The position numbers and the translations under genes were made by a program. Positions 10,101 to 63,852 of a stretch of DNA of 64,000 nucleotides are shown in pieces; the first letter of the stretch is position 1; the number at the start of each line of letters is the position of its first letter. The notes below the pieces were generated by a model. It worked only from the letters and a program-made list of their open reading frames with translations. It was not told where the DNA came from and did not search any database. The stretch is from Hormiphora californensis (taxonomy: Eukaryota; Animalia; Ctenophora), in the NCBI GenBank assembly GCA_020137815.1, contig CM035355.1, positions 8,246,001-8,310,000 on the forward strand. Reading direction: 5' to 3'.

Positions 10101-11851
10101 GAGTCTGGCAGACATTAGAAGCTACTAGCTAGTAAATCGGCTGGAAAGATTGGAGCCGCGGGTCTTCAAACAGTAGCTGAGACGACAACCGCTTGCTAGT
10201 CTTGGGGGCCACAGCTGGTTTTCCCAACACTAGAACGACGTCATCGAGGTCAACCACTTTCACTTGTGCTTGATATTATGTCGCTCTGCGAGCTCGTAGG
10301 CCAGTGGACGGATGTCCGTTATCTTCAAACCAAATAAATGCGCCTCCAGTAGCAGGATCCTGTGTGATCAGTGATCACACAACTGCTGTTCCAGATCTGC
10401 AGACAAAATGGTAGTTCCGCTCCCCAGAATCTTCATGGCGCCCTCTGCAAACTTATTCTTCCCTTTCACTCTCCGTTCGAGGGTGCTCTTGGGCACGTTG
10501 AACAATTTCGAGGCCATGAGGTACCCACATTCCCCTGTCTTGACAGCTTTGATGGCCTTCCTCATACTGACAGTGTCCCAGCTTTGTCTAGTGGTTTTCC
10601 GAGTTTTTTGAGACGTGAAATCGCTGCCATTACGAATCTAATTAAAGAAAAGTAAATTTTTGGTCAAATGAGATACCAAAAATTTGGTAAAATGAGATAC
10701 CCCATTTGGCCAAACAGCAAACCATCCCATTAAACAAAAACAAGGCATGAAGTAAAATCAAGTTATCAAGTCATGAGATAGTTATTTATCACTAAATTCA
10801 TAGCAGGAGTGGAATGAAAATTGTTTAAACTAACCTATTGATCGGTCAAATCTAGCATACAAGTCACAACAAAGATAAGAAAGCGAGCTGAGCTCGATTG
10901 AACTTTCTAGTTGCGTTTTTTTCAAAGGGGACCCCTGTGTTATTTGCACTGTAATTCTCAGATGAGTTGTTGAATGTTATAAGAATGGTGTAAGATTATA
11001 TCAGAACAGCATCCTGTGTCAGAAAATCACGCACATCCCACAGTAATCCCTGGAGCCCAATATCCCATTTGACCAAGTATCCCATTTGAGGCGAATCTCC
11101 CTACAAACAAAATACCACAACTATAATGATACAGGGCTCTGGGAGAAAACAGTTGTGACTGGACCTCAGATTCAGGCACGACTGTTTTCCCCCTCTTATT
11201 TCTAGGGAAAGAGCTTAACTTCTTTTGGACCAGCGCGAATATGTTCCATGTTCCATTCCTGTATTCCAGCTAACAAATTCCTTCTTTTCTCCCCTCTACA
11301 GAGATCACCAGCTAACAAATTCCTTCTTTTCTCCCCTCTACAGAGATCACCAGCTAACACCCCTTTCTCCTCCCTCTACAGAGATCACCAGCTAACACTC
11401 CTCCCCCCTCCCTCTACAGAGATCACCAGCTAACAAATTCCCCTCCCTCTACAGAGATCACCAGAACATACTAACGGAGATGAAGGGAATATCTTCAAAA
11501 CTAGAGGAAATCACCAGGAGACTGGACCAAGTACCAGGATGTTCTAGTGGCAAGAACAGACCCAACACTGCCCTCTCAACAACATCTAGACCGGGGATGT
11601 CTCGGCAACTTTCAGCCGCTGCTGACCTCTCCTCCAACAGATCTCACTCCGCAGACAATTTCAATATTACAGTACCACCTCCACCCAGATCAAATTATCG
11701 GTCACCCAACTTCTCTCTGCCAATCAGGCAACCCAGTGAAACAGGGGAGGAGTTATCTAACCCATCTGTGAACAAGTTTAGGAATCTGCTGATGAAAAAC
11801 ACACCAGGCGATGGGGGAGGACCCTCGCCGACTGGGGATGAACGATGTTAA
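4114..11851 (+). CDS. Ankyrin-repeat TRP cation channel (TRPA/TRPV-like, possibly TRPVL-type), 5'-partial, 11 exons
   Basis: GT-AG exons with consistent phases: 4114-4223, 4868-4985, 5203-5311, 5557-5710, 5914-6239, 6493-6599, 7026-7144, 7470-7552, 7645-7738, 9519-9689, 11455-11851. Motifs: last ankyrin-like segment (LINRGACGDVANNAG), HPVIKELTDKKWDLYA (pre-S1), hydrophobic S1-S5, pore FVVLRMLVVDYDY, S6 MIMLNLFIALMTD, TRP-box-like LQRAQFVASCE, coiled-coil-like tail. Upstream ankyrin exons not found in the window. Confidence 0.88.
6206..6530 (+). repeat. Donor-echo (x3, 6206-6316) and acceptor-echo (x3, 6391-6530) repeats in one intron
   Basis: GAGGGCGCCTCACTTTACCTAATTG|GT(G/A)AGT occurs three times; TAG|TGAGTGATATCGTGATATCCC..CTACTGATAATGA occurs three times. 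Confidence 0.9.
7370..7431. mobile_element. Tiny palindromic element (also ~11141-11193, ~37471-37507)
   Basis: GGGG(A)AAACAG..GTG..TGAACCTGAGGTTCAGGCACGACTGTTTTCCCC hairpin family. Confidence 0.65.
7892..9464. repeat. 16-bp intronic minisatellite (ATACCGTGTTTCACTG)n, ~98 copies
   Basis: Near-perfect tandem array; G>C and TT variants are clustered in the 3' half. Confidence 0.97.
9714..11102 (-). mobile_element. Deleted pogo/Tigger-like DNA transposon in TRP intron
   Basis: Imperfect TIRs (GGAGATTAGCGTATAATGGGATAC versus the reverse complement of GTATCCCATTTGAGGCGAATCTCC). Minus-strand remnant RKTTRQSWDTVSMRKAIKAVKTG..ASKLFNVPKSTLERRV (HTH-psq) is followed by a CENP-B-type HTH (LEQQLCDH..FGLKITDIRPLAYELAE) with frameshift/stop. 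No DDE domain seen. Confidence 0.75.
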
Positions 11852-11985
11852 AACAATTAAACAATTAAACATTTATTTAATACATATATATATATTGACG
11901 ATATATTAAGGGTTGGGTACATACTAACATTATTCTCTTTTTAGTTTGTTGTTTTTTGATATTTTTTGTTGTCCACCACCGAACC

Positions 11986-12078
11986 AGGAAATACTGGTCC
12001 CTGATTGGCTGATAACCAGTCACGTGACCTAAATAACGAGTTCTGATTGGTTGTTTACTTGGTTCGGTCGGTTCCTGT
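11986..12078. repeat. Dispersed ~75-90-bp repeat (also ~14838-14930, 40466-40545, 58008-58080)
   Basis: GGAAATACTGGTCCCTGATTGGCTGATAACCAGTCACGTGACCTAAATAACGAGTTCTGATTGGTTGTTTAC at four loci. Confidence 0.9.
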
Positions 12079-12303
12079 TCACCACATGGTGGCCGCGCGG
12101 GAATTTCTCGCAAAACTGTGTGAAATATGATGTTGTTTTCTCTATTGTGCTCTTATTAAAAACCAAAACTTGCTAGGTTAATGAAATGTTATATTTTAGT
12201 TAACAAAAGATAAATGATTTATTTAATGGAGAGTGAAATTCACCAAAATAAAAGAAAATTGTGTAATATGTAGATAGACATTACATTTAAATTGATTTTA
12301 ATA

Positions 12304-13585
12304 CAGTCGGACCCCGATTTAGTGGCATCCTCGGGGGAAAAAAATCCTGCCACTAAATCGGGGTGCCACTAAATCGGGGAGATCCATATTTGGCCCATAA
12401 AAACCTATTTTATGCCCAAAATGCTATACTAAGACTAAAGACACCTCTAACTGTTATATGCAATATTCATGTATTGATGACATGATTATTTTTGATTAGA
12501 AAAAGAAAGCTATAAAATATTTTTTTCAAAACAAGAATTATTGCATTATGTATTCATAATGCGGTGTTTCCCTGCCCTCCGTCGACAGGATCAGTATCAC
12601 ACTATCAGTATCACAATATCAAGGCTTGGTCACAATGTGAGATGCATGCGTCCTGTATGTATGCAGTTACACAGCTGTTTTACTCTACCCTCACCCCTTC
12701 AGCAACAGTGTTGTGAGCGCTGGCCGCTGCGCACAGAAAAATAAGCGTCCTGACATCATATTTCATCAAAACAGTTATTTGATTTTATGAAGGAGCAGTT
12801 ACTATGCTGCTACCGTGACACACGCGATTTTGACCACGCTCGAGTTACTATTTCAAATCCGAGATTTCTAAACCCTTTATGATCTTTTTAGCACACGTGC
12901 TAAAACGATCATCCGGGTGGATGCCCTTCGGGCATCCACCCGGGCAGGGAAAAAATTGTGAAAAATTTTCTAAGTTATACCAGCCCGTCCGATTTGTGTT
13001 TCGAATCGGTGCAGCTTACTGAATGTCCTGTCTAATTAGACAGTTCGAAACGAACTGATACGTGATACCATGCCGAATCGGGGCACCCTAAGCGGGTGAG
13101 GAAGTATCAACATTTCAAAATAACTTTTTCTCTCAAAATTTATGGGGAGCACCGATCAAAGCATTGACAATCGTACTGTAAAATTTTGCAAAAAAAAGTT
13201 TTAAAATTTTTTAAAGGTATACCAGCCACGTCCGAATCGTGTTTCGAATCGGTGCATCTTATCGCAATATGTCCTGCTGCTAATTAGACGGTTCGAACGA
13301 ATCGAAACGTGATCCCCATCGAATCGAAATTTTGACGCTGGTGAACTTGTGATTCAATGGCCCCATGGGGATCACGTATCGGTTCGTTCCGAACCGTCTA
13401 ATTAGCAGCAGGACATGCGATAAGATTCACTGATTCGAAACACGATTCGGACGTGGCTAATATTCCTTTGAAAAATTTTCAAAAAAATTTCACAAAAAAA
13501 TTCAAAAAAATTTTTGGGGGAAAAAAATCGTGCCACTAAATCGGGGTGCCACTAAATCGGGGGCCACTAAATCGGGGTCCGACTG
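12304..13585. mobile_element. Non-autonomous Tc1/mariner/pogo-type TIR element
   Basis: TA|CAGTCGGACCCCGATTTAGTGGC ... GCCACTAAATCGGGGTCCGACTG|TA, with repeated subterminal GCCACTAAATCGGGG motifs. Confidence 0.88.
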
Positions 13586-13781
13586 TAATATAGATAGCAA
13601 AAACATTGATTTTTCAATTTTTTAACCAACCAAGCTCGCTACCCCTTCCCCTCTCTATTTCTTTCTTCCCCTCTCTCTATTTCTTTCTCCCTCTCTCTCT
13701 ATTCTTTCTTCCCCTCTCTCTCTATTCTTTCATCCCTCGATTTCGATCTCACTAAAACTAAAACATAAAGCATATTTTTTC

Positions 13782-14320
13782 AGCTACACTCCTTTCCCCT
13801 CCCTCTACAGAGATCACCAGCTAACACTCCTTTCTCCCCTCCCTCTACAGAGATCACCAGCTAACACTCCTTCTCCCCTCCCTCTACAGAGATCACCAGC
13901 TAACACTCCTTTCCCCTCCCTCTACAGAGATCACCAGCTAACACTCCTTCCCCCTCCCTCTACAGAGATCACCAGCTAACACTCCTTTCCCCCTCCCTCT
14001 ACAGAGATCACCAGCTAACACTCCTTTCCCCTCCCTCTACAGAGATCACCAGCTAACACTCCTTTCTCCCCTCCCTCTACAGAGATCACCAGCTAACACT
14101 CCTTTCCCCCTCCCCTCTACAGAGATCACCAGCTAACACTCCTTTCCCCCTCCCTCTACAGAGATCACCAGCTAACACTCCTTCTCCCCTCCCTCTACAG
14201 AGATCACCAGCTAACACTCCTTTCTCCTCCCTCTACAGAGATCACCAGCTAACACTCCCCCTCCCTCTACAGAGATCACCAGCTAACATCCCTTTCCCCT
14301 CCCCCTACAGAGATCACCAG
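13782..14320 (+). repeat. Acceptor-echo array, ~39-bp unit x ~14 (5 copies in the sister array at 11267-11464)
   Basis: Unit CTAAC + pyrimidine tract + CTACAG|AGATCACCAG; only the last copy continues into the exon. Confidence 0.93.
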
Positions 14321-14707
14321 AACATACTGACAGAGATGAAGGGAATATCTTCGAAACTAGAGGAAATCACCAGGAGACTAGACCAAGTACCAGGATGTTC
14401 TAGTGGCAAGAACCGACCCAACACCGCCCTCTCAACCACATCTAGACCGGGGATGTCTAGACAGCTGTCAGCCGCTGCTGACCTCTCCTCCAACAGATCT
14501 CACTCCGCAGACAATTTCAATATTACAGTACCACCTCCACCCAGATCAAATTATCGATCTCCCAACTTCTCTCTGCCGATCAGGCAACCCAGTGAGACAG
14601 AGGATCAGTTATCTAACCCCTCTGTGAACAAGTTTAGGAATCTGCTGATGAAAAACACACCAGGCGATGGGGGAGGGCCCTCGCCGACTGGGGATGAACG
14701 ATGTTAA
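14311..14707 (+). CDS. Second copy of the TRP gene terminal exon (alternative last exon or uncollapsed haplotype)
   Basis: Intact CTACAG acceptor and same reading frame as 11455-11851. About 20 nt differ, and only ETGEEL->ETEDQL changes the protein. Confidence 0.6.
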
Positions 14708-15159
14708 AACAATTAAACAATTAAACATTTATTTAATACATATATATTGACGATATATTAAGGGTTGGGTACATACTAACATTATTCTCTTTTTAGTTTG
14801 TTGTTTTTTGATATTTTTTGTTGTCCACCACCGAACCAGGAAATACTGGTCCCTGATTGGCTGATAACCAGTCACGTGACCTAAATAACGAGTTCTGATT
14901 GGTTGTTTACTTGGTTCGGTCGGTTCCTGTTCACCACATGGTGGCCGCGCGGGAATTTCTCGCAAAACTGTGTGAAATGTATGATGTTGTTTTCTCTGTT
15001 GTGCTCAAATTAAAAAACCAAAACTTGCTAGGTTAATGAAATGTTATATTTTAGTTAACTAAAGATAAATGACTTATTTAATGGAGAGTGAAATTCACCA
15101 AAAATAAAAGAAAATTGTGTAATATGTAGATAGACATTACATTTAAATTGATTTTAATA

Positions 15160-16442
15160 CAGTCGGACCCCGATTTAGTGGCATCCTCGGGGGAAAAAAA
15201 TCCTGCCACTAAATCGGGGTGCCACTAAATCGGGGAGATCCATATTTGGCCCATAAAAACCTATTTTATGCCCAAAATGCTATACTAAGACTAAAGACAC
15301 CTCTAACTGTTATATGCAATATTCATGTATTGATGACATGATTATTTTTGATTAGAAAAAGAAAGCTATAAAATATTTTTTTTCAAAACAAGAATTATTG
15401 CATTATGTATTCATAATGCGGTGTTTCCCTGCCCTCCGTCGACAGGATCAGTATCACACTATCAGTATCACAATATCAAGGCTTGGTCACAATGTGAGAT
15501 GCATGCGTCCTGTATGTATGCAGTTACACAGCTGTTTTACTCTACCCTCACCCCTTCAGCAACAGTGTTGTGAGCGCTGGCCGCTGCGCACAGAAAAATA
15601 AGCGTCCTGACATCATATTTCATCAAAACAGTTATTTGATTTTATGAAGGAGCAGTTACTATGCTGCTACCGTGACACACGCGATTTTGACCACGCTCGA
15701 GTTACTATTTCAAATCCGAGATTTCTAAACCCTTTATGATCTTTTTAGCACACGTGCTAAAACGATCATCCGGGTGGATGCCCTTCGGGCATCCACCCGG
15801 GCAGGGAAAAAATTGTGAAAAATTTTCTAAGTTATACCAGCCCGTCCGATTTGTGTTTCGAATCGGTGCAGCTTACTGAATGTCCTGTCTAATTAGACAG
15901 TTCGAAACGAACTGATACGTGATACCATGCCGAATCGGGGCACCCTAAGCGGGTGAGGAAGTATCAACATTTCAAAATAACTTTTTCTCTCAAAATTTAT
16001 GGGGAGCACCGATCAAAGCATTGACAATCGTACTGTAAAATTTTGCAAAAAAAAGTTTTAAAATTTTTTAAAGGTATACCAGCCACGTCCGAATCGTGTT
16101 TCGAATCGGTGCATCTTATCGCAATATGTCCTGCTGCTAATTAGACGGTTCGAACGAATCGAAACGTGATCCCCATCGAATCGAAATTTTGACGCTGGTG
16201 AACTTGTGATTCAATGGCCCCATGGGGATCACGTATCGGTTCGTTCCGAACCGTCTAATTAGCAGCAGGACATGCGATAAGATTCACTGATTCGAAACAC
16301 GATTCGGACGTGGCTAATATTCCTTTGAAAAATTTTCAAAAAAATTTCACAAAAAAATTCAAAAAAATTTTTGGGGGAAAAAAATCGTGCCACTAAATCG
16401 GGGTGCCACTAAATCGGGGGCCACTAAATCGGGGTCCGACTG
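15160..16442. mobile_element. Second copy of the same TIR element (part of the segmental duplication)
   Basis: Almost identical to 12304-13585, with the same flanks. Confidence 0.88.
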
Positions 16443-16649
16443 TAATATAGATAGCAAAAACATTGATTTTTCAATTTTTTAACCAACCAAGCTCGCTACC
16501 CCTTCCCCCTCTCTATTTCTTTCTTCCCCTCTCTCTATTTCTTTCTTCCCCTCTCTCTCTATTTCTTTCTTCCCCTCTCTCTCTATTTCTTTCTATCTCC
16601 CCCGTCGATTACTCTCTGATCTCACTAAAACACTAAAACACTAAAGCTA

Positions 16650-18130
16650 TCATTTTCGTTCCATACTGTCAATTCTCTTCATGAGAGTCTCAATTAGCTC
16701 CGTCTGTGACTTGATTTTAGTTTTCAAAAACTCATTCAAATCATCATCTGTTGATTCCTGTTTCTCTTTCAACAGTCTTCGCAGCGTTATGTTAGTTGCT
16801 TGGACCTGAAACAACACGTATTTTGTACATTTTGTACATTATATCGTATGTGTAGTGTGTACATTGTGTACATTTTGTACATTTTGTACATTATGTACAT
16901 TGTGTACATTGTGTACATTGTACATTGTGTACATTGTGTACATTGTGTACATTGTGTACATTGTGCACTGTGTGTATATTGTTTGTACTTACATCGCTCT
17001 CAAATGTGGTTTGTTCATCATCTCTCAGCTCATCGTCATCATAAAATGCTGATGCAGGAGCGTAGTTGTATGCAATGTCCAGAAGATGGAACTTCCTCCA
17101 ATATTGAGGTAGTTTGTTTTCTATGGATACTATCATGGCAGCCTTCTCAAACTGTGAAACCACTAGAGCGTTCTCATACACTTTGGAAAACGTATCTGAA
17201 ACAAGGGATATGCATCATAAGATCATGGACACCATGTGATTGAAACTGTTACATAGCTAGTCTATACTGGTATAGTAGTCACATGGTCACCACGTGATTG
17301 AAACTGTTATATAGCTAGTCTAGACCGGTAGTAGTGGTATCCAGTAGTTTAGTTAGAATTGAGTTATATAGGATATAATTGAGTTGAGGGTCTACCCGAT
17401 ACCAGTCCGCCCACCTACCAGATAAGAGGGCGATAAGGAGGTTGAGGAGAATTACAGAGGATGCTATCAACCAATAAGAAATAAGAATCCTGGTAAAGGA
17501 AACGTATATTCCTCTGTTCTCAGCCAATAGAATTAGAGTATCATAACCATAATCATCCACCAGTGTGTATCTGAATACTGGAGGGGGGTGGTGGGTGGGG
17601 TGGGGGGTGGGGTGGGGGGAGGGGTTAGTTTACACTGCATAGTACCCCGGCAGCCAATAGAATTAGTGTATCATAACCATAATCATCCACCAGTGTGTAT
17701 CTGAATACTGGAGAGGGGGGGGGGGGGTGGGGTGGGGTGGGGTGGTGGGGTGGGGCGGGGGGAGGGGTTAGTTTACACTGCATAGTACCCCGGCAGCCAA
17801 TAGAATTAGTGTATCATAACCATAATCATCCACCAGTGTGTATCTGAATACTGGAGAGGGGGGGGGTGGGGGGTGGGGGGGGGGTGGGGCGGGGTGGGGG
17901 GAGGGGTTAGTTTACACTGCATAGTACCCCGGCAGCCAATAGAATTAGAGTATCATAACCATAATCATCCACCAGTGTGTATCTGAATACTGGAGAGGGG
18001 GGGGGGGGGGTGGTGGGGGGTGGGGTGGGGTGGGGGGAGGGGTTAGTTTACACTGCATAGTACCCCGGCAGCCAATAGAATTAGTGTATCATAACCATAG
18101 TCATCCACCAGTGTGTATCTGAATACTGGA

Positions 18131-18176
<46 letters not shown>

Positions 18177-21100
18177 GGGGTTAGTTTACACTGCATAGTA
18201 CCCCGGCAGCCAATAGAATTAGTGTATCATAACCATAATCATCCACCAGTGTGTATCTGAATACTGGAGAGGGGGGGTGGTGGGGTGGGGTGGGGCGGGG
18301 TGGGGCGGGGGGAGGGGTTAGTTTACACTGCATAGTACCCCGGCAGCCAATAGAATTAGTGTATCATAACCATAATCATCCACCAGTGTGTATCTGAATA
18401 CTGGAGAGGGGGGGGGGGTGGTGGGGGTGGGGACTGGGGGTGGGGTGGGGCGGGGGGGGGGGTGGGGCGGGGGGAGGGGTTAGTTTACACTGCATAGTAC
18501 CCCGGCAGCCAATAGAATTAGAGTATCATAACCATAATCATCCACCAGTGTGTATCTGAATACTGGAGAGGGGGGGGGGGTGGTGGGGGTGGGGGTGGGG
18601 TTAGTTTACACTGCATAGTACCCCGGCAGCCAATAGAATTAGAGTATCATAACCATAATCATCCACCAGTGTGTATCTGAATACTGGAGAGGGGGGGGGG
18701 GGTGGGGTGGTGGGGGTGGGGTGGGGGGTGGGGTGGGGGGAGGGGTTAGTTTACACTGCATAGTACCCCGGCAGCCAATAGAATTAGAGTATCATAACCA
18801 TAATCATCCACCAGTGTGTATCTGAATACTGGAGAGGGGGGGGGGGGTGGGGTGGGGTGGGGCGGGGGGAGGGGTTAGTTTACACTGCATAGTACCCCGG
18901 CAGCCAATAGAATTAGAGTATCATAACCATAATCATCCACCAGTGTGTATCTGAATACTGGAGAGGGGGGGGGGGGGGGGGGGGGGGGGGGGTGGGGCGG
19001 GGGGAGGGGTTAGTTTACACTGCATAGTACCCCGGCATACTGGAGAGAAATAGAGATTGGGGGAAGTCGGGATTAAATAATCTAGCCCCAATCTAGCGGT
19101 GACAACTGTATTAGTATACAGAATCAGTAAAGTGTTAGTAACTTAAGTAACAACTGTATAATCACCTGTAAAGCAGCATTGTTTGAGGTCTCCATACTTG
19201 TAGTCACTAAAATCATCGTTACTGGTTAGGGTGGAATTGTAAGTACCGTCCTTACCGGCCGAGTACAGGTGGTAAAATGAACACACCTGTGTAAAGACAC
19301 ATGGGAATGGGTGAGACGGAATGTAAAGGGGATATACAACAATTATATACTAGCTATAGGGTTTTATGGGCAGGAAATAGAACGAGTCAATTTCTGAGCA
19401 CATGAATAGCGAATTATGTTCATCATGAATGGTATGCCTATAGCATTTAAAATTAAACTCATTAATATTTTCGTACCATGGGAATGTATAGGATAATGTA
19501 AACGATGGCAGTCTTGGCGATATCTTTTGGCAGCGATGATATGATCACACAAAATGGTCCTGTGGAAAGAATTGTGATTTGGGCTGGTGTCATCTGAATC
19601 TCTAAGGCAATATTTGAATGTTTGTCTACCAATTCAATGGTTGCCATGGTAACTAAATCGGTAACTAAATCGGTAAGTATGAATTGTCAAGTAAAACAAC
19701 GTGAGTAGAGCACTCTCCGGGACAAGGACTATCAACAATAACTATGAATTGCTAAATTATGTTCAGAAATGATCACTAACTGCCAACAGAGTAAAAACAA
19801 CTGCTCCCAAAAAGACAGACTGGTATTTAAAGCATTTCATCAATCCGATTTGAGTTTGCCATCGGCACTCCCATAACAATGGGTAACGGAATCCATGCTA
19901 ACATGGTAACCATGGTAACTCCCATAACAATGGGTGGGAGTCTAAGCCTAACGGAATCCATGCTAAAGGCGGAGTCTAAGCCTAACGGAATCCATGCTAA
20001 AGGCGGTGTCTAAGCCTAACGGAATCCATGCTAAAGCCATAGTCTAAGCCTAACGGAATCCATGCTAAAGGCGGTGTCTAAGCCTAACGGAATCCATGCT
20101 AAAGGCGGAGTCTAAGCCTAACGGAATCCATGCTAAAGGCGGAGTCTAAGCCTAACGGAATCCATGCTAAAGGCGGAGTCTAAGCCTAACGGAATCCATG
20201 CTAAAGGCGGTGTCTAAGCCTAACGGAATCCATGCTAAAGGCGGAGTCTAAGCCTAACGGAATCCATGCTAAAGGCGGAGTCTAAGCCTAACGGAATCCA
20301 TGCTAAAGGCGGAGTCTAAGCCTAACGGAATCCATGCTAAAGGCGGAGTCTAAGCCTAACGGAATCCATGCTAAAGGCGGAGTCTAAGCCTAACGGAATC
20401 CATGGTAAAGGCGGAGTCTAAGCCTAACGGAATCCATGCTAAAGGCGGAGTCTAAGCCTAACGGAATCCATGCTAAAGGCGGAGTCTAAGCCTAACAGAA
20501 TCCATGCTAAAGGCGGAGTCTAAGCCTAACGGAATCCATGCTAAAGGCGGAGTCTAAGCCTAACGGAATCCATGCTAAAGGCGGAGTCTAAGTCTAACGG
20601 AATCCATGCTAAAGGCAGAGTCTAAGCCTAACGGAATCCATGCTAAAGGCGGAGTCTAAGCCTAAAACGAACTCTAAAGTCTAACTCTAAGTCTAACTTT
20701 AGACTTTAGACATAGAGTCCGGATTTTTTAGACTTAGCACAATTTTTTAGACATAGCTATTATAGAGTCCCCTGTGTTAGACTTGGTAGACATAGAGTCT
20801 CCCATACTCAGGCGTTAGATAAAGAGTCTCCGGACTCTAGGTCTAAAACCTAATCCCAACCCTAAACCTAAGCCTAACAGAACCCCTAACCCAAACAACA
20901 ATCGTAACCATTGTGGACCAGTTAGAAAGCACAGCGATCTCTCGCAATCTACGATTTTAGACTTATAGCTGAGCTGATACTTTTTAGCGTTCCCTTGTTT
21001 TAGAATTATTAGACATAGAGCCCTCCCTGTATTTTGAGCAAAAAGTGGACTCTAAGTATTGTAATATTGTATTTAGAGTCCGTTAGGCGTTAGACCTAGC

Positions 21101-24100
21101 GTCCGTCTCCCGTGTAAACGTCGATAAGCTCTCATTATCTTAATGAGCTTAATGACGGGTTGTGAACCATTTTGGACCGTCAATTCCTAGCCCCTGCAGA
21201 CAACCAGTGAATATTGTGAATGTGAAGGTGTGCTATTTTTCATCGTTTAGTTGCTAACAAGAAAACAAATTACATTTCTAATGGTAAACTTTTTATGAGT
21301 ATCAAACAGCATGTCGGTATTTTGTTTAGCCCAAGGGAGCTTCACAGATCCAGGTTATATCTTCGTCGTGCCCATGGCGATTGGCCCACTTACGTCCATT
21401 TTCTTTGCTTTTACGGAAAGAAGCTGTTGGCATATTGTATTCGCTAATTTCACCGGTCATTTTGATGAACTGCTGCAACTTAGGTCCAATAATACGCATG
21501 AGTGCCAAACAAACGGGTTCATATTCTGATTACCAACTACCAGCTACCATGACACTGCAGGTAATCAGAAAATGATCCCACCTGTTTTCACATTTTGGGC
21601 GAGACTGCAACCGCTAATTGGTAGTTGTCCCAAAACTGTGAAATACAGCTTTGGACACATAAAGTGTTTTATGAAGGAGCACCGTCGCGTAACAACGCAC
21701 TGAACGAACGACCATCACTTCGACGCGACATCTTTTATTTGTATAAAACATGCACAATTTTTAATACTCACCCAGTTTTTCAAGAACTCGACAGTATTTG
21801 AATAGTTTAGCCCACACCACAACCAGGGTAACTGATATTAACTGTCCTCTCTGCACTTTATAGGTACTGGCATCCAGGTATTTTATCAAGAAATGTACTA
21901 ACAACGTCACTATGTAGGAATTCAGGGTTAAAAATTTGAAACGTCGGGAATTTGATATGATTCAACTAGTTGTCTTCTTACCAAACATTAAAACAATGGA
22001 AGCCCAGTCAAACACATTCCAAGAATCCTTTGAGTAAAAACTGCTGGACTTTCTAACTTGATCCTAAACAGTGAGTTAGCTGAGTTTCTAACTTGATCCT
22101 AAACAGGGAGTTAGCTGAGTTTCTAACTAGATCCTAAACAGGGAGTTAGCTGAGTTTCTAACTTGATCCTAAACAGGGAGTTAGCTGAGTTTCTAACTTG
22201 ATCCTAAACAGGGAGTTAGCTGAGTTTCTAACTTGATCCTAAACAGGGAGTTAGCTGAGTTTCTAACTTGATCCTAAACAGGGAGTTAGCTGAGTTTCTA
22301 ACTTGATCCTAAACAGGGAGTTAGCTGAGTTTCTAACTTGATCCTAAACAGTGAGTTAGCTGAGTTTCTAACTTGATCCTAAACAGGGAGTTAGCTGAGT
22401 TTCTAACTTGATCCTAAACAGGGAGTTAGCTGAGTTTCTAACTTGATCCTAAACAGGGAGTTAGCTGAGTTTCCATGGTAACAAAACCGAGTTTCCATGG
22501 TAACAAAACCGAGTTCGATCAGTTCCCATGCAGATAATATGCAGATAATAATGAACAACTCTATTTTCTAGACGCTGGTAATGAAGTAGTAACTGTGTTA
22601 TGTTCTACCTGTTCCTTCCGGAGGTACTGTTTTTCTTCCTCAGATAGTAATTCCAAGTACTTGAATTCCATTTCCAACTGTTTTAACCGCTGAGTCACAA
22701 ACCTCTGGTGACGGCGTCTGTTTAACCGCAGCTCTCTTATCTCATCAAACACCTGCAGCAGTAATGTTTGAAAACACCTAGTTGGAGATCAGTGCAGTAT
22801 TTTGTAAAACACCTGCAGGAGAGTGCTCAGTGCAGTCTTTTGTAAAACACCTGTACAGGGATGTTTTAGCTTTGAAAACACCTAGTGGGATAATCTTGAA
22901 ATAACTTGGAGGCAACTATGAACCATAGAAACGAAAACTTCTCTATCAGTTTGAAATTTTGTAAACATCTTGACCCGAAGCATTTATGATTATTTCAAGA
23001 ATCTTGTCTACTGACCTGGTAGATAAAGAACAGGACAGTAAGCACTTCATTGGCAATAGCTACTTTGTTAGTAAGGGTATCTGAACTCTCTGTGCTGTCT
23101 GTGCTCTCAATCGGGTTGAACAGGCACAACAGACTCCAGTTCAACAAGACTATCAGATACGCAGCTACTTCTTTCCTATACCCTGAGAAATAGTTGAGTT
23201 GTTGTACTGTACCCTGGAATATTTTGGAATGTTAATGGAATGACTTGTTTTGCTGTTCATAGAGCGGAGACTGAGGCATATGGAGTTGTTACACGGAGAC
23301 TGGCATTGCGGACACAATCAGCTTGTAGTTATGATGTAAATGATTAATAATGCTTACCTCTTCTTCCGAATTGGTACCATTTGATTTCAATAAGTTTCTG
23401 GATGATTGGGTGTCTAATTATCTCCAATTCGCTATTCCCCGCCCTCACAGTTTCCTCTAAAACTGTAAATGTTGTTCTTGCACACTGAAATCAGATGTGT
23501 TTATGTTGATGGTAACAATATCTATGGAACATCAAGATATCCATTTTGTGAAATCCGTTATGTGCGGTAAATAAAACTAAACAAACGTTCACTTTTAATA
23601 GTCTCGGGACTATACCTCATCGTTGCAAAGAGTAATGGGTTCCAGAAACTGAAGGCTAAAGTACTCCCGCCTGTTCCGCAGATCTTTTTCTATGCACGTA
23701 TCTAAGGCCTGCAGGAGGTTTCTAATTACACATGGGAGGATACAGCCGGGTGGTACTAGACCTATTAGCCTCGTCCAATCTCAAGAAGGGAAAGTCAGAA
23801 GACTCGATAGTGGTTCTCTCCATCCTACCTGTCTAAGCTATGATCTGCACATAGGAGAGAAAATATAGAGTGCACTTACCTTTAGGGCGAGTGGAGGGCA
23901 CTTGTTCACCATAGCACTGATACCATACATGCCAGTAAAGTCAATAGCGTACACTTTAGCTCCACAGTCAAGTAACATGGCTCCAGCTGACATCCTCCCC
24001 AACTCTGCTGCAAGTAATAGCGGCGTTCTACCCCGGTAGTCCCTGTAATCAGTAATCAGTTAGGGGTGGTGTGGTGGGTGGGGTGGAGGGGTGGGGTGGA

Positions 24101-27100
24101 GGGGTGGAGGGATGGGGTGGGGTGGGGTGGAGGGGTGGAGGGGTGGGGACATCCTCCCCAACTCTGCTGCGAGTAGTAGCGGCGTTCTACCCCGGTAGTC
24201 CCTGTAATCAGTAATCAGTTAGGGGTGGTGTGGGGTGGGGTGGAGGGTGGGGTGGGTGGGGTAGGGTGGAGGGGTGGGGTGGAGGGATGGGGACATCCTC
24301 CCCAACTCTGCTGCAAGTAATAGCGGCGTTCTACCCCGGTAGTCCCTGTAATCAGTAATCAGTAAGGGGTGGGGTGGGGTGGTGGAGGGGTGGGGTGGAG
24401 GGGTGGTGGAGGGGTGGGGTGGAGGGGTGGGGTGGCGGGATGGGGACATCCTCCCCAACTCTGCTGCAAGTAGTAGCGGCGTTCTACCCCGGTAGTCCCT
24501 GTAATCAGTAATCAGTTAGGGGTGGTGTGGGGTGGGGTGGGGTGGAGGGGTGGGGTGGAGGGGTGGGGTGGAGGGATGGGGACATCCTCCCCAACTCTGC
24601 TGCAAGTAGTAGCGGCGTTCTACCCCGGTAGTCCCTGTAATCAGTAATCAGTTAGGGGTGGGGTGGTGGGTGGTGTGGGGTGGGGTGGAGGGGTGGGGTG
24701 GAAGGATGCGGTGGGGTGGAGGGATGGGGACATCCTCCCCAACTCTGCTGCAAGTAGTAACGGCGTTCTACCCCGGTAGTCCCTGTTGTAATTAAAAGTA
24801 GTTAAAATTAAAGTTTCACCTCTCCGATCTGAGAAACACTGTGAGATCAGTGATCTCGCAGTGTTTCAACTGGACTCATATTCAGCCGCCAATTATCATG
24901 AAACTCTCTCTCTACCTCCGGAGACATCACTCAATGATGTACATTGTACACACATGGAGGTGAAAAATAAAGTGGGGTCGTTGCTGGGACTGTAAATATG
25001 TAAATATGTCATTATCATGTGAATATGTCATGATCAAGGAAAGAAAGTGGGGAAGAAGTTAACTTGTTCGGCTCCCCCCAATTACAATTAAAAAGTAAAT
25101 TAACCAATAAGTTTTACCTTGCCTCAATCTCAGCTCCCATCTCGACAAGTTTCTTGACTGAGCTCGGTGAGTCATATCTCGCAGCGTAATGTAGTGAGGT
25201 CTGTAGCATATAGAACGTAGTGGATTCCAAGTCTCCTCCGTTACTGGCCAATATCTCGACTATAGCTGAGTTGTTGTAAGCAGCAGCAACGTGCAGTGGG
25301 GTACAACTGTAATCGTCCTCTGGAAATACAATAGAGATTAAAAGGGGTGCTCATAAGGCATAAGCTTTTGCAGTCTCTATTTCATTAGGGGGTAGAGCAA
25401 TGACCGTGGTAAATTTCACAAAACCCAAGTGAGATTATCTTTAGTTTGGCCTTGGGGCTTGGGTTTTACTTTTTTACTTACCAAGATTTATGTTAACTGA
25501 GTAGTTGAGGAAGAAGAAGCACACATCAGCATTATGGTATCGTGCTATCTCATGCATTAGGTTCTGTCCCACATCGTCACAGGCGTGTACATCTGCACCC
25601 TCTGATATCAACTGACGTACTGTATCCAGATCTACTTTTACCTGGTGTGGAGGGGTGGGGCGGGGTGGAGGGGGTGGGTGGGGCGGTGGGGTGGGGTGGT
25701 GGAGGGGGTGGTTGGGGCGGTTGGGGGAGGGGGGCTGACGTACTGTATCCAGATCTAATTTTACCTGGTGTGGAGGGGTGGGGTGGGGCGGAGAGGATGG
25801 GTGGGGAGGTGGGGGGGGGGGGCTGATGTACTGTATCCAGATCTACTTTTACCTGGTGTGGAGGGGTGGGGTGGAGGGGTGGATGGGTCGGTTAGGGGGG
25901 GGGGTGGTGAAAAGGGTGGGTGGGGCGGAGAGGGCGGGTGGGGCGGTGGGGTGGGTGGAAAGGGTGGGTTGGGCGGAGAAGGCGCCTGGGGAGGTGGGGG
26001 TGGGGTGGTGGAGAGAGTGGGTCGGGTGGAGAGGGCGGGTGGGGCGGTGGGATGGGCTAGTGGAGAGGGTGGTTGGGTGGTGGAGAGGGCGGGTGGGGCG
26101 GAGAGGGCAGGTGGGGTGGTGGGGTGGTGGAGAGGGTGGGTGGGGTGGAGGGGCGGGGTAGGCCGGAGTTGTGGGATGGTGGGGGTAGATAAACTTTTAC
26201 CTGCTTTTGGGGGTGGGGTTGGACTTATACTGGGGGTTAGTGAAATCTGTAGATTCAGATCTACAGGGCTGGCTATGTGGAAGGTTGGAATGAGATTTAT
26301 TCTATAACTAGTATACCGTTTCTTCAGGACTGGTTTTGGTAGCGATGTCGTTGAAATAGTAAAGGAGTCCCAGAGTTTTATTTCCCCGGTACTTCTCGTG
26401 GAGTTTCAGGGTTACTCTAACTCGGTTCATCGCCTGGAAAAAGTAGAGTCTGCTGACTGGGAATGTTACATTGATCTTACTGGACGGACAAATTTCCTCG
26501 AACGGATAAATAGTCAGATCAAGAAAAAAATAATTAAAATCTTGAACACTTTACCTTTGATTCCAAAAGACGTGATATACACCACCACTCAAGACGTCTG
26601 TATAATCTTGCTGGACCAGTTAGGAATATCCAAAGGTATTTCAGTTTGGTGGGCGGAACGTTCCTTGGTATCTGCAGCGCAGGGAGGTACAACCAATAAA
26701 TCATATAATAGTGAGCGATCACAAAAGTGAAAATACCAACTAAAATATTAAAATATTGCAGATTTTCTAATGCTTCTTCAAGATGCTTGTCCAAGGGGTG
26801 TATTTTTTTAATAGACTGAGCTGATGACTATAATAATGCAGACCTAATATAGCCTACCTTATCAGGGAGTGAACTTGATTCGAACATCATGATGAAAAGA
26901 AGCTCACAAACAAACTGCTCAGTCTGACATTATCTAGCTCCACCATTTACTTTTCTCAACGCTTCTATCTCTTTGTTTCTCACATTCTTGGTCTCTAAGT
27001 GAAGATAGTCTTCTTCTGCTCCTACTGCTATCGATGAGCGAGAGAGCGGGAGCGAGAGAGAGAGAGGAGAGCTAGAGCCGAAGAGAGAGCTGAGAGCGCC

Positions 27101-27368
27101 TGAAAGAGGAGAAGAGCGGAGCACAAGACGCGCAGCGGAAGAGGAGATAAGCGAGAACGCGCGAGAGCGCGTCAGCGCAGGACTATCGTCCTCTGCACAG
27201 CGCTCTCTCTCATGATCCAGCGCTCTCCGATCTCCTCAGCGCGCTATCTCATCTGATCTCTACGAGCTCCTCCCTGATATGCCTCGAGACTATCCGACAC
27301 GTCGTACTCATCTCTCTCTCACTCTCTCTCTCTCTCCATCTCTTCTTGTCCATACTCTCTCATCTCTC

Positions 27369-27439
<71 letters not shown>

Positions 27440-28293
27440 ACCTCACTCTTATTTCTTTGACTAGGCCTCATGGGAACCCCGCAAAACAGCTCCTTTTGCC
27501 CAACTCCATCTCTCCCCCTCTATCTTCACATCTACATCTCTCGGCTCCAACCGTTCTCGGTATTATTATTCCCTCTCTCTGTTTCTTCACTTCTCCACAA
27601 CTTGAAATCAATTTAAATGTGATTAAACATTTTATAAATTGTAACATTCTTACAAAGAACACAGCCTGTGGATTGAGAAGTGAGGATCAAATGGGGTTTT
27701 GACCAGACAGAAAATAATTAGTTAGACAGCCATACCCATGAACTCATTGATTGTTGGAAGAACTAGGAAGAGCTAAGAACTTACCTTTCCAGTGGCAGCT
27801 ATGTTGCTTGGGTCAGCCCTCTAAAACCTACCTTTCCTGTAGCAGCTATGTTGCTGGGGTCAGCTCTCTAAGAACTACCTTTCCAGTGGCAGCTATATTG
27901 CTGGGATCAGTCCTCTAAGAACCTACCTTTCCAGTGGCAGCTATTTTGCTTGGGTCAGCCTTCTAAAACTTACCTTTCCAGTGGCAGCTATGTTGCTGGG
28001 ATCAGCCCTCTAAAACCTACCTTTCCTGTAGCAGCTATGTTGCTGGGATCAGCCCTCTAAAACCTACCTTTCCAGTGGCAGCTATGTTGCTGGGGTCAGC
28101 TCTCTAAAACCTACCTTTCCAGTGGCAGCTATGTTGCTGGGGTCAGCTCTCTAAAACCTACCTTTCCAGTGGCAGCTATGTTGCTGGGGTCAGCTCTTTG
28201 TTCGGGAGAGGAGCCTGTGAAGGTCGTGCCAGTAATCGTCCCTGATTCATGATCCCCATCCGAATCACTGTTATCATTGTCACCGAAATTCAT
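16650..28293 (-). CDS. Ankyrin-repeat TRP cation channel (TRPA/TRPV-like, possibly TRPVL-type), ~15-16 exons
   Basis: Exons (plus coordinates): 28162-28293 (ATG), possibly ~26951-27030, 26317-26433, 25482-25641, 25118-25319, 23880-24042, 23616-23708, 23358-23484, 23016-23182, 22609-22752, 21982-22063, 21772-21909, 19477-19559, 19166-19286, 17419-17577, 16993-17195, 16650-16805 (TGA). Ankyrins: GADVHACDDVGQNLMHEIARY, TPLHVAAAYN, TSLHYAARYD, GRTPLLLAAELG. Channel motifs: HPIIQKLIEIKWYQFG, DSWNVFDW, KLGPFCVII, pore VFRYTLVDDYGYD, S6 ILLNLLIALLSDTFSKVYENA. Confidence 0.92.
17521..19045 (-). repeat. Acceptor-echo array, ~130-150-bp unit x 11
   Basis: Each unit is CTAAC + C-tract + CCAG| + first ~56 nt of the pore-helix exon (FRYTLVDDYGYDTLILLA). 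Confidence 0.93.
19935..21111. mobile_element. MITE-like element whose left end is amplified into a 34-bp minisatellite (~21 copies, 19935-20665)
   Basis: Unit GGAGTCTAAGCCTAACGGAATCCATGCTAAAGGC; the right end TCCGTTAGGCGTTAGAC..CTCCC is inverted to the unit; internal CCTAAC-like tract at 20845-20890. Confidence 0.55.
22050..22473 (-). repeat. Acceptor-echo array, 35-bp unit x ~12
   Basis: Minus-strand unit CTCAGCTAACTCCCTGTTTAG|GATCAAGTTAGAAA; the exon begins at 22063. Confidence 0.93.
23990..24785 (-). repeat. Acceptor-echo array, ~130-145-bp unit x 6
   Basis: Unit is C-rich tract + CTAACTGATTACTGATTACAG| + DYRGRTPLLLAAELGRM codons. Confidence 0.93.
25612..26205 (-). repeat. Acceptor-echo (x3 plus a distal remnant) with long G/C-rich tract
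   Basis: CAG|GTAAAAGTAGATCTGGATACAGTAC at ~25641, ~25764 and ~25852; partial copy at ~26200. Confidence 0.8.
27781..28198 (-). repeat. Donor-echo array, ~47-bp unit x 9
   Basis: Minus-strand unit: last 36 nt of exon 1 (RADPSNIAATGK) + |GTAGGTTTTAG. Confidence 0.93.
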
Positions 28294-28641
28294 CTAGAAC
28301 TAGACACACAATATTGTTGTATTTCACCCACAATTACGTTACGTCTTAAAGGCTTCTTAAGTTACATGTCCTGTGCGTCTGATACGCCTGAATCAGCCAT
28401 GTTGTAGTGCGTCTGGGACAAGCGTCTAGACTGAATTACCTGTAGTACGTCGCTGGTACGTCTTTTTAGTCTCTTAAGCAAATCTGTCTAGGAGTTTTAT
28501 GACTTTATGTAGTACGACTAAGTCTGGACTACGTCGCGACTACCGCGGTTCGACGTAGTGACGTAGTATTTCACACTATATTTTGCCTGGGATTTGGCCA
28601 GGTACTGTATGAGTTGCATGAACTCAGAACTGTGAGTGATA

Positions 28642-31928: not shown

Positions 31929-32746
31929 GAGCTTCACATGAAATGATGAACTCCACATGATTGCAGAGCTTCACATGATGAACTCCACATGATTGCAGAG
32001 CTTCACATGAAATGATGAACTCCACATGATTGCAGAGCTTCACATGAAATGATGAACTCCACATGATTGCAGAGCTTCACATGATGAACTCCACATAATT
32101 GCAGAGCTTCACATGATGAACTCCACATGATTGCAGAGCTTCACATGAAATGATGAACTCCACATGATTGCAGAGCTTCACATGAAATGATGAACTCCAC
32201 ATGATTGCAGAGCTTCACATGAAATGATGAACTCCACATGATTGCAGAGCTTCACATGATGAACTCCACATAATTGCAGAGCTTCACATGATGAACTCCA
32301 CATGATTGCAGAGCTTCACATGAAATGATGAACTCCACATGATTGCAGAGCTTCACATGAAATGATGAACTCCACATGATTGCAGAGCTTCACATGATGA
32401 ACTCCACATGATTGCAGAGCTTCACATGAAATGATGAACTCCACATGATTGCAGAGCTTCACATGAAATGATGAACTCCACATGATTGCAGAGCTTCACA
32501 TGAAATGATGAACTCCACATGATTGCAGAGCTTCACATGTAATGATGAACTCCACATGATTGCAGAGCTTCACATGATGAACTCCACATGATTGCAGAGC
32601 TTCACATGAAATGATGAACTCCACATGATTGCAGAGCTTCACATGAAATGATGAACTCCACATGATTGCAGAGCTTCACATGAAATGATGAACTCCACAT
32701 GATTGCAGAGCTTCACATGAAATGATGAACTCCACATGATTGCAGA
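31929..32746. repeat. 37/32-bp minisatellite, ~23 copies, downstream of Kv stop (probable 3'UTR)
   Basis: Unit GAGCTTCACATG(AAATG)ATGAACTCCACATGATTGCA; a single unit occupies the homologous position ~37929-37966. Confidence 0.95.
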
Positions 32747-32913
32747 TCACTGATCTTGGTACACTTCATGATCTTGGTACACTTCATGTATTGGGCACAT
32801 ATTGCATTCTATCTCTCTCGTGATACTACAAGCGTTACATGATCTTGTCCCCTCTTCAAGCTGAGTTCACGTGATCATTAGATCTTGTTCCCTCTTCATT
32901 TGAAGCTGATAGT

Positions 32914-33090
32914 TCACTTCTCATCCTCCTCCATGATAGAGTCCTGCCTCCCCATCCCGCCACCTCCCCCTGGGTGATGATGGTGGTCTGGTGTCTCACC
33001 CTCTTCCTCATCTAGCATCTCACTGTCTTCATAGCTTCCATCGTTAGCAGGTCCGTACTCCCCAGTGTTTTGCATAAATGTACACGTGAA
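32914..33090 (-). CDS. Duplicate of Kv terminal exon (probably alternate haplotype)
   Basis: Encodes FTCTFMQNTGEYG...DHHHHPGGGGGMGRQDSIMEEDEK*, nearly identical to 38147-38326. It lies in block 31340-33382, which matches 37255-38625 and ends at the 100-N gap. Confidence 0.55.
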   Translation of the reverse strand, partial: FTCTFMQNTGEYGPANDGSYEDSEMLDEEEGETPDHHHHPGGGGGMGRQDSIMEEDEK

Positions 33091-33382
33091 CTAGAGGGAG
33101 GGAGAGGAGGGGGGTTATAATAATAACAACAACAATGTGATACTGCTGTGTGTGCCATGTGTATTTTCATGAGATTTCAGGGTGTGGCAGCATGTGGAAT
33201 TCGGGCAGCGATATGTTATATGGAATCAGCAGAATAAAGCCCAAAAAGGAACAAAACCCGCGAAGTAAAAGATTTAAGTAGGTAGCATTTCTAGATTTAA
33301 GGTAGCATTCTTGGGGCGAGTATTATAGGTGTACCAAGTAGCATTCGAGATTTATTGCGAGTATAAAGTCAAGGTATAATTA

Positions 33383-37730: not shown

Positions 37731-38146
37731 CTATCCGTTTCTCTCTCTACACTCAAAGTGTGTAATGTGTATTGTCTCTCCGCACACACCATGTCCATCC
37801 TATAGAACAGGATAATGCTAGCCCTGGATCAGAGGTGACTGCGCCACCAACAGGACGATGTGTTCCTGCTACTGCTGCATTCCTGCTATATACATGACGC
37901 ATGTTTCTGTGCAGCTACTGCATTCCCCGAGCTTCACATGTGATGATGAACTCCATATGATTGCAGATCACTGATCTTGGTACACTTCATGATCTTGGTA
38001 CACCTCATGTATCGGGCACATATTGCTTTCTATCATTCGTGATACTATATAGTACAAGCGTTTCATTGATCTTGTTCCCTCTTCAAGCTGAGTTTACTTG
38101 ATCTTAGATCATTGATCTTGTTCCCTCTACATTTGAAGCTGATAGT

Positions 38147-61769: not shown

Positions 61770-63852
61770 GAGAATTAGTACAATACGGAAATTAAGATTA
61801 CTCTGTTTAATTACCTTGTAAGTGTAATTCGTCCAATCATCTCTGCTCTCGTTGATTTTAACTGTCCTGGGCGCTTTCTCTAACCCACTGAGAGAGAGAG
61901 AGAGACATGTTGTGAGGACAGGGGAGAGAGTAAAGACAGAGAGAGAGTAGAGACAGAGAGAGAGAGTAAAGACAGAGAGAGAGTAAAGACATGTTGAAAT
62001 GTTTACAAAGAACATTGTACAAATGTTCCTGAACGTTTTGAAAGAAACATGACAGTACTGGCTAATGAGTTTTCTAATGGTCGACTTTACTAGAATGAAG
62101 AATCGTGGTAAGAGTTGTCGAGTAAGCAGTGGACAACTACAAGAGACATGACATACAAGAGACATGATCGGACATGATCGGACAGGATTCACCCCCCACA
62201 ATCACACCCATGACAATAGGAGTGTATAATACCTGATAACTATTTCTTGGAGGGTGTTGGTATTATTGTATCCTGGGTAGAGGAGTTTAACTTCACTCGT
62301 TACACGAGTACCGGAGGCGTTGAAGTGAACTGTCTGATACATGTCCTGGGGTAATGTACATGTGAGTGGAGTGTGGATTAGTACATGTCCTGGGGTAATG
62401 TACATGTGAGTGGAGTGTGGATTAGTCTGGTACATGTCCTGGGGTAATGTACATGTGAGTGGAGTGTGGATTAGTCTGGTACATGTCCTGGGTAATGTAC
62501 ATGTGAGTGGAGTGTGGATTAGTCTGGTACATGTCCTGGGGTAATGTACATGTGAGTGGAGTGTGGATTAGTCTGGTACATGTCCTGGGGTAATGTACAT
62601 GTGAGTGGAGTGTGGATTAGTCTGGTACATGTCCTGGGGTAATGTACATGTGAGTGGAGTGTGGATTAGTCTGGTACATGTCCTGGATAGGGGGGGGGGG
62701 GGTAATGTACATGTGATGTACAATGTACATGGGGGTAATATAGTTTACCTTTCGAAGGAAAAGGTTTGGGAATATCAACTTTAAATTCTTCTTCTTTAGT
62801 CTGATTGATAATTTCAACTAACTAATCAATACCTTTGATATCGTGTCTTCAGAAACACCATCATCCACAAACAGGAAGCCTGAAGCTGACTTATCAGCTG
62901 CTAGATATACCTCCACTATGTAGTCCCCTGACTTCAGCCTGGGAGACAGAGAGGGGAGTTAGAGACAGAGAGGAGTTAGAGAAGGGGAGAGAGGGGAGTT
63001 AGAGAGGGGAGTTAGAGAAGGGGAGAGGGATTATAGACAGAGAACTACAAAGCATATTTAAACCAAGAAGCGGAACCCCAAAGGTTTCTCTAATAGTTTC
63101 TATGACTCACATTTCAGAGGTTGAGTTAGCGGTATTTAGATGCCTAACCACCACAGAACCGCCCCTTATAAAGGTAGGAATTGTCTCCATTGTTACCGAG
63201 ATATCCTTCTTCCCATTTCCAGATGTGCTCACTACAGCTCTTGTCTCACCGTCATACCAGAGGTTATCCACCCCACCAGGGAAGTACACCTCCCTCTTTG
63301 TAACTCCCTGAAATTGAATAGCAGTTGTTTGTAACTCCTTGGGGGAGGGTGAGTTTGTTACGGAGGAGAGGAAGGGGAGACCCCACCGGGGAAATACACC
63401 TCCCTCTTTGTAACTCCCTGGGAGGGGGGGGGGGGGATTTTGTTGTTACTAAACCATGTCACAATGGAGGGCATTCAAAATGAAACTGTAACTGTATGAA
63501 CTCAAGGATTTGTAAATGACATTCTACAGCTTGGAACAAGTGACTAAAGTAATTCCCTAACATGTCCCAAGATCACCCGCACCGGGGGAGGGAGAGAGCC
63601 GAGAGGTGTGTTTACCTTTATTGTTACAGGTGTCACCATGATAGCATCTCCCAACATAAACTGACTGACAATGTCCAGTGTTGAATTATCATCTAGATAA
63701 TCAAAGAAGAGTGGTTTAACAACCATAGCTCCAACAGTGTGAGCTAGATAGAACTGGGAGTAGAGGTAGGGGAGGAGCTTGTAACGAGTCTCAATTGATG
63801 TCTTGATACGGGCTGTTGCTTCAGCTGAGAATTCTGTATCCGGTGAGGTACC
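61442..63852 (-). CDS. Glycoside hydrolase family 31 alpha-glucosidase, 3' part (continues beyond window)
   Basis: Exons ~63616-63852, 63111-63307, 62833-62937, 62233-62345, 61817-61887, 61442-61513. Motifs RYKLLPYLYSQFYLAH..G..VVKPLFFDYLDD..QFMLGDAIMVTPV, VYFPG..WYD, IPTFIRGG and SGFLFVDDGVS are typical of the GH31 C-terminal region. Confidence 0.9.
62335..62690 (-). repeat. Acceptor-echo array, ~49-bp unit x 7-8
   Basis: Minus-strand unit CTAATCCACACTCCACTCACATGTACATTACCCCAG|GACATGTAYCAGA. Confidence 0.92.

Follow-up and report, generated by a model that had tools for sequence, protein, structure and literature searches.

An exon-head array with an unrelated outermost acceptor in a TRPA1-like gene of the ctenophore Hormiphora californensis: a possible case of 3' splice-site replacement

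Which acceptor is the older one when an intron holds several copies of the start of the following exon, and the outermost copy stands behind a context unlike that of all the others? The question is raised by a TRPA1-like ankyrin/ion-channel gene on the minus strand of a 64,000-nucleotide (nt) stretch of the genome of Hormiphora californensis (GenBank assembly GCA_020137815.1, contig CM035355.1, positions 8,246,001 to 8,310,000). We call this whole stretch the window, and all coordinates below are positions in it. In the intron before one ankyrin exon of the gene, the first part of the exon (the head) recurs in a tandem array, and we consider whether the AT-rich acceptor before the outermost copy may be the original one, left stranded when a C-rich insert supplied a new acceptor.

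The array before the ankyrin exon

The 15 exons of the TRPA1-like gene, placed by their coordinates, form a single open frame, and the product matches two homologues, P0002 (named TRPA1-like, from Bolinopsis) and P0003, along its length. The C-terminal exons are 97-100% identical to a third protein, P0001 ('sb/3467035'), whose prefix, shared with P0004 below, we take to mark gene models of Pleurobrachia bachei. The parts of the array and its surroundings are as follows, in the direction of transcription.

25118..25319, minus strand: exon upstream of the array intron, 202 nt, from the exon models
24820..25117, minus strand: unique 5' part of the array intron, with the donor GT at 25117-25116
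24783..24819, minus strand: context A of the distal acceptor, 37 nt, rich in A and T and free of G at -30..-4; candidate stranded original acceptor
24729..24782, minus strand: distal head copy, with a private substitution at head position 23
24635..24728, minus strand: spacer I1, 94 nt, 60% C, with a G-quadruplex (G4)-type G-tract on the plus strand
24148..24634, minus strand: four internal 54-nt heads (24634, 24498, 24345, 24201) and C-rich spacers of 82-99 nt; each AG leads to a premature stop
24043..24147, minus strand: spacer I5, 105 nt, 64% C, with a branch-point-like CTAAC and CTGATTACAG at its end; flank of the putative functional acceptor
23880..24042, minus strand: TRPA1-like exon, 163 nt, ankyrin repeat, DYRGRTPLLLAAELGRMSAGAMLL..., 94.5% identical to P0003 over 55 amino acids

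The array consists of 54 nt of exon head with five extra copies in the preceding intron. The six heads start at 24782, 24634, 24498, 24345, 24201 and 24042 and differ from the last of them (24042) at 0-2 positions, and all six are preceded by CAG. Over their first 22 nt the heads are identical. Five of the heads stand behind a C-rich spacer (82-105 nt, 60-64% C) that ends in CTGATTACAG, while the distal AG, at 24784-24783, stands behind the AT-rich TTTTAATTACAACAG. The earlier note had described just this division between one distal and five proximal copies, and it is borne out, with the distal head starting at 24782. Five units, each a 54-nt head and a spacer ending in AG, thus form a tandem repeat that spans the exon-intron boundary, and by its sequence organisation the array is a 'mirage' minisatellite.

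Could the upstream copies be functional, as alternative acceptors, as microexons, or as a step to a new intron? The AG is kept at all six copies, microexons of 39 or 51 nt that keep the frame would result from the GTs at head positions 40 and 52, and Ebner et al. put forward mirages as a source of new introns (PMC3087553; this and the papers cited below, PMC3902484, PMC3443670, PMC2891723 and PMC8527503, are drawn on for the parts of their text available to us). However, the acceptor at 24044-24043 is the sole one of the six that retains the reading frame from the donor at 25117, and each of the other five AGs, when joined to 25117, brings a premature stop before the exon end is reached. Both GTs score below all 42 real donors (-2.2 and -3.7, against 3.0-12.3), the unit holds no AGGT, and the homologues P0002 and P0003 carry the head peptide once each. 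A function for the upstream copies is therefore very unlikely in our judgement, and the route to intron gain suggested by the earlier note finds neither the AGGT nor the donors that it would use. The array is probably neutral clutter.

The next question is whether the array, or its distal junction, is an artefact of the assembly. It is true that gaps and low-quality sequence occur in the window, and that duplicate blocks (2.5 kb, 97% identical) are left uncollapsed in it, but every unit of the array has its own spacer, and joins of the same kind appear in other material. Eight sequencing runs are listed, seven of them with part of the stretch (three studies), and four runs are compared over 24680-25640. 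In a second sample from a second study (S2, P2), one record of run X6 (record 10) joins context A to the head over 24761-24844 with 0 differences, another (record 9) has the head joined to spacer, and run X5 (table 5c) has a spacer-end variant before the head. The short sides of these junction pieces measure 22-27 nt, below the 31-nt threshold for bridging, so that they are suggestive only. Among the contig pieces listed for S2 there is no array-free haplotype. An artefact seems to us extremely unlikely.

A contig from a further run, X8, which we guess to be RNA, departs from the genome at 25117 and then encodes DYRGRTPLLL. It suggests that the upstream exon is joined to the head in a relative, and does not tell which head copy is used. 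X8 carries the same species label as X1, yet 40 of 204 exon bases differ (about 80% identical), mostly at third positions, and it is probably a related species under X1's label. Run X7 (RNA) contributes two contigs, which show the neighbouring intron spliced; the region 25118-24782 lies outside their cover. A short intronic piece nearby, at 25373-25438, reaches a summed contig depth above 100,000 in X5 and X6 with many differing loose ends, and is a high-copy dispersed repeat.

Polarity of the two acceptors

Between context A and the functional context, exact sharing is limited to 4 nt (ACAG), and in alignment 22 of 33 unrelated acceptors score as high (local shuffle p 0.52). As judged from these alignments, the distal and proximal contexts are not detectably homologous. 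One explanation starts from homology all the same: a plain tandem duplication took along about 20-30 nt of the old acceptor, slippage then blurred the likeness of the copies, and the acceptor now in use derives from the old one rather than from a new insert. In line with this, the site at 62682 and probably that at 6393 show a homologous context with an indel beside the AG, both contexts of the array at 24042-24782 hold TAACT and then ATTAC in the same order, and the outermost unit of an amphioxus mirage is excluded from homogenisation (PMC3087553). However, a single mismatch in 54 nt separates the distal head from its neighbour, so that point mutation has had too little time to erase the similarity of its flank; most unrelated acceptors align just as well as the two contexts do; and in amphioxus some 55 intron nt of the outermost unit can still be aligned. 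We consider divergence of this kind quite unlikely.

To see the array in the company of others, we turn to the 41 introns of the window that are modelled with both ends, from four genes (the TRPA-like gene, a second TRP-like gene, a Kv channel in two parts, and a GH31 gene). All gene models are open frames. The acceptors at 44164 and 42176, the donor at 43229 and the array at 27773-28194, whose other ends are lacking, are omitted. An echo is counted where at least 8 nt of the exon head recur in the upstream intron. Such echoes occur at 9 of the 41 acceptors, every one of them behind an AG, and at 0 of 77 controls (Fisher p 4e-5), made up of 36 downstream introns (0/36) and 41 reverse complements (0/41); interior exon starts reach 8 nt in 3 of 659 cases. 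Mirage echoes are common in this window. Tail echoes are found at 3 of the 41 donors, one of them with no GT after it, and an excess of acceptors over donors, 9 to 3, is not established. The long exon-intron matches in the 41 exons are all anchored at an AG, except for one AG-less internal copy at 63338; the other unanchored matches are short and of chance size. In six of the nine echo arrays the distal copy shares just 2-4 upstream nt with the functional copy, the AG always included, and one of these six, at 62682, is homologous further upstream.

These counts bear on the opposite polarity, in which the C-rich acceptor is ancestral. A G4-type tract would have promoted duplications, and the distal copy would then have lost its spacer by a deletion at the ACAG microhomology, or a head copy would have been dropped upstream and fused to AT-rich intron. 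The final structure is identical: with A for the distal context, H for the head and I for the spacer, the order A-H-I-H-rest arises equally from A-H-rest or from A-I-H-rest, so that replacement is not shown by it. The functional site is also the better acceptor (score 5.2, against -1.1 for the distal one), and three of the four TRPA arrays have a G4-type tract, which no echo-free acceptor has, although here cause cannot be separated from effect; the same ambiguity holds for the echo acceptors being more C-rich than the 33 others (p 4e-4). Work in C. elegans is said to have found G4-triggered deletions by polymerase theta. On the other hand, a dead copy is under no selection for its AG, yet the AG and 2-4 shared nt are present in six of nine arrays; the flanks are G-poor at six of seven distal sites; and the 41 introns contain no long displaced copies of exon interiors. 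We hold the C-rich acceptor unlikely to be the ancestral one, though this is the least unlikely of the alternatives.

How acceptor-like, then, are the distal sites? The acceptor model is trained on the 33 echo-free acceptors, with 300 intronic YAGs as decoys, and the functional acceptor at 24042, at 5.2, is equalled by 1.3% of the decoys. Taken together, the six distal sites score as acceptors against the decoys (Fisher combined p 5e-6). Counted at -30..-4, six of seven distal sites hold no more than one G, as do 10 of the 33 true acceptors and 9 of the 300 decoys, in a test chosen after the acceptor scores were seen; 24782 itself has zero G there, as do 3 of the 300 decoys. With the arrays cut away, the distance from donor to distal AG would be 116-335 nt, against a median of 195 for 32 echo-free introns. 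Context A furthermore begins with a donor-like AG/GT (24819) and weakly resembles the 5' end of its own intron (p 0.001-0.036, depending on scoring and search space), the resemblance ranking 5th of the 41 introns, behind four known arrays; this may weakly tie A to old intron sequence.

That the distal sites are acceptor-like as a group favours the replacement of the acceptor, and with modest confidence we lean to the reading in which the AT-rich distal acceptor is the stranded original and the AG of the C-rich insert its replacement. The position of the intron in the mRNA is unchanged, so that this is acceptor turnover, neither intron gain nor sliding. The replacement put forward by the earlier note is thus upheld as far as the acceptor-like distal sites, the AG-anchored echoes and the ordinary intron sizes are concerned, and weakened by the score of the site at 24782 itself.

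Several further points count against the stranded-original reading. The acceptor at 24782 scores -1.1, which 19% of the 300 decoys reach and which is below the 5.2 of the functional site; this is near the bottom of the 33 true acceptors (-1.5 to 10.5), and the site ranks 5th among the 19 AGs that its intron has in the unique part. AT-rich stretches elsewhere in the window are as similar to the donor end as context A is (scores 25-29 against 26), and the 37-nt intron that the resemblance implies is below the minimum of 72 among the 41 modelled. A local template for the filler is not found, with no match of at least 7 nt within 150 nt upstream, and a decayed copy of the whole upstream exon inside the intron is rejected (p 0.29). 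At three of the nine arrays (22063, 11455 and 62345) a plain duplication took place, and no acceptor was replaced. The exon models were made in this analysis, and the window was picked because of its echoes, so that its rates are not genome rates. Finally, we see neither an orthologous intron nor an array-free haplotype, and the polarity is inferred. A pattern scan of metagenomes with P0003 for the orthologous locus gives 61 matches and 0 confirmed; 41 metagenome loci with the exon peptide match at the generic ankyrin level only (38-78% over 18-45 amino acids), and none is used.

If the AT-rich acceptor is the original, the array may have formed in the following way. A template switch during repair or replication, 54 nt into the exon, would lay down a short filler, and a jump back to the old acceptor at 2-4 nt of microhomology (ACAG) would re-copy the exon head behind a short C-rich insert ending in AG, leaving the old acceptor stranded at 24783. 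Such an allele could survive if the filler provides a branch-point-like CTAAC and an AG beside an intact exon; use of an upstream AG would yield a premature stop. The choice of the proximal AG would be made by exon definition (here 163 nt against 322-903 nt), and errors would be removed by nonsense-mediated decay. The filler would then grow through slippage of CCCCA/CCCCT units, and unequal exchange would multiply the unit of head and filler, being unable to homogenise the outermost flank. Elsewhere in the window, in the series 6393-6440-6493, one filler is 11 nt long and has a 9-nt match immediately before it, and the next unit holds a longer version, as expected of a growing templated filler.

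In templated insertion by polymerase-theta-type repair, the insert is copied from nearby flanks with microhomology at the joints. There is a 4-nt overlap at the AG and a 9-nt local match at 6393, and the array at 24042-24782 shows no template; the repair pathway for the spacer insert is inferred. Two other origins are rejected: a fold-back of the spacer from the head end (p 0.48), and a re-copy templated by mRNA, where by eye the functional contexts match the tail of the previous exon by at most its last 1-3 nt.

Other echoes and neighbouring genes

The earlier note had drawn parallels between the array and three further sites. These three and two more arrays are the following.

25641..26200, minus strand: second acceptor array of the TRPA1-like gene, with 30-nt heads at 25852 and 25764, a 14-nt remnant at 26200, and C-rich spacers
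17577..19047, minus strand: third acceptor array, ten 57-nt heads in units of about 137 nt, with a distal remnant at 19039 (8 shared intron nt and 3 head nt)
22063..22473, minus strand: fourth acceptor array, a plain tandem with a unit of 35 nt and a homologous distal context
62345..62700, minus strand: GH31 acceptor array, 49-nt unit; the distal context is the same sequence with an indel
63307..63440, minus strand: GH31 acceptor echo, with a C-rich distal acceptor and 38-nt head at 63417 and an AT-rich functional acceptor at 63307

The parallels hold to different degrees. At 62682 versus 62345 an identical upstream block of 17-18 nt (p 0.001) marks the two as the same context, with an indel beside the AG. 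At 63417 versus 63307 the contexts do differ, with the composition reversed: it is now the distal context that is C-rich and the functional context that is AT-rich, which contradicts AT-richness as a general mark of the ancestral acceptor. At 26200 versus 25641 just 8 nt of the head match exactly (12 of 14 in all), and both contexts are C-rich.

The exon at 25641 starts with GT, and the echoes at 26200, 25852, 25764 and 25641 all read AG/GT, with a donor score of 9.3 (real donors 3.0-12.3). The site at 26200 lies 116 nt from the real donor and has a CTAAC at -37. Judging by these motifs, it could serve as a recursive (zero-length exon) splice site that gives the same mRNA.

Arrays and echoes of other kinds are also present. 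Shorter acceptor echoes, decayed to 5-8 head nt in 3-4 copies and below the 8-nt threshold, are found on the minus strand at 22752-22890 and 41200-41330, and suggest that older mirages erode. Donor-side arrays, which repeat an exon tail and GT, lie at 41561-42041 (52-nt units), 6206-6316 (36-nt) and 27773-28194 (47-nt). In the Kv gene an acceptor array at 44128-45121 (minus strand) has sixteen 61-nt units, and its distal end enters low-quality sequence. By eye, a long inverted repeat of 11-nt units at 1980-3430 resembles a miniature inverted-repeat transposable element or a foldback element.

The TRPA1-like gene (16650-28400, minus strand) stands tail to tail with a second TRP-family channel gene (4090-11850, plus strand), and a Shaker-type Kv gene at 38300-44200 adjoins the two, forming an ion-channel cluster. 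One exon of the GH31 gene is 94% identical to P0004 ('sb/3464051'). Two 2.5-kb blocks at 11292-13778 and 14152-16656 are 97% identical, and each holds the last exon of the plus-strand TRP-like gene. They carry 5 and 14 acceptor-echo units, respectively, which suggests that such arrays are unstable. The blocks are probably uncollapsed haplotypes, and a duplication is also possible. A similar pair, 89% identical, at 32708-33380 and 37929-38606, holds the 3' end of the Kv gene.

Relation to known mirages and meaning of the finding

The closest known system is the mirages of amphioxus, tandem duplications of an intron end and an exon start (PMC3087553, PMC3902484). They are described in the globin genes BflGb6 and BflGb9 (PMC3087553) and in PGBD5 (PMC3902484), and both papers cite mirages in Adh3 and troponin C of amphioxus. 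In BflGb6, units of 150-160 bp stand in 6 and 3 copies in two haplotypes, with cryptic AGs and splicing undisturbed, and the outermost units are excluded from homogenisation (PMC3087553). The array studied here shares with them the head-to-tail order of intron 3' end and exon start, a unit of about 140-160 nt, 3-6 copies, decoy AGs, a frame kept by the authentic copy alone, and an outermost unit outside homogenisation. It differs in its host, a ctenophore, and in the intronic part of its unit, a low-complexity C-rich spacer. It also differs at the outer end: in BflGb6 all units share about 55 alignable intron nt, the outermost included (Additional file 4 of PMC3087553), whereas here the outermost shares 4 and its flank is unrelated. 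The alignable outermost part is a feature seen in BflGb6, and the available text of PMC3087553 does not state it as part of the definition of a mirage.

Intron gain by tandem genomic duplication is alike in that a local exon duplication is turned into intron with the coding sequence intact. That route needs a duplicated AGGT proto-splice site (review PMC3443670, Drosophila study PMC2891723), whereas the present array has no AGGT and no new donor, the duplicate is absorbed into an existing intron, and the number and position of introns are unchanged. Inserts left by repair and flanked by a direct repeat are similar as well, since the insert here also lies between direct repeats; the repeat, however, runs to 54-58 nt rather than a few bases, and an acceptor is all that the insert contributes.

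For the genome of Hormiphora, a tandem-repeat content of 13% and raised intronic indel heterozygosity are reported, and in the parts of that paper available to us we find nothing on such arrays (PMC8527503). Our literature search, with most subscription journals outside its scope, finds no mirages reported in ctenophores and no mirage with a non-homologous outer acceptor; the Adh3 paper, likewise outside that scope, may describe one. Mirages as such are known, and the array with its non-homologous outer acceptor is a variant of them.

Splice sites are usually assumed to persist by descent, changing through point mutation or sliding. If the polarity is the reverse of the one that we prefer, the array is an ordinary mirage and its value lies in extending mirages to a ctenophore. 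In either case the alignment of spliced reads and the building of gene models can go wrong at arrays of this kind; aligners are reported to make false joints between repeats (PMC10632439). Should the distal AG be the older site, a whole 3' signal was swapped in one step with the mRNA kept the same, and both versions can still be read. Many such pairs in one genome would make it possible to measure how readily filler DNA yields a working acceptor, and would show by what means the spliceosome selects, among identical heads, the AG next to the exon. About 5 of the 41 acceptors in the window would have an upstream fossil, and it is a tentative, rather doubtful idea that wholesale and frequent replacement of 3' splice sites takes place in this ctenophore lineage. 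If true, much intron growth and many C-rich acceptors would stem from acceptor turnover with no sliding, and old and new acceptors would stand side by side, directly comparable.

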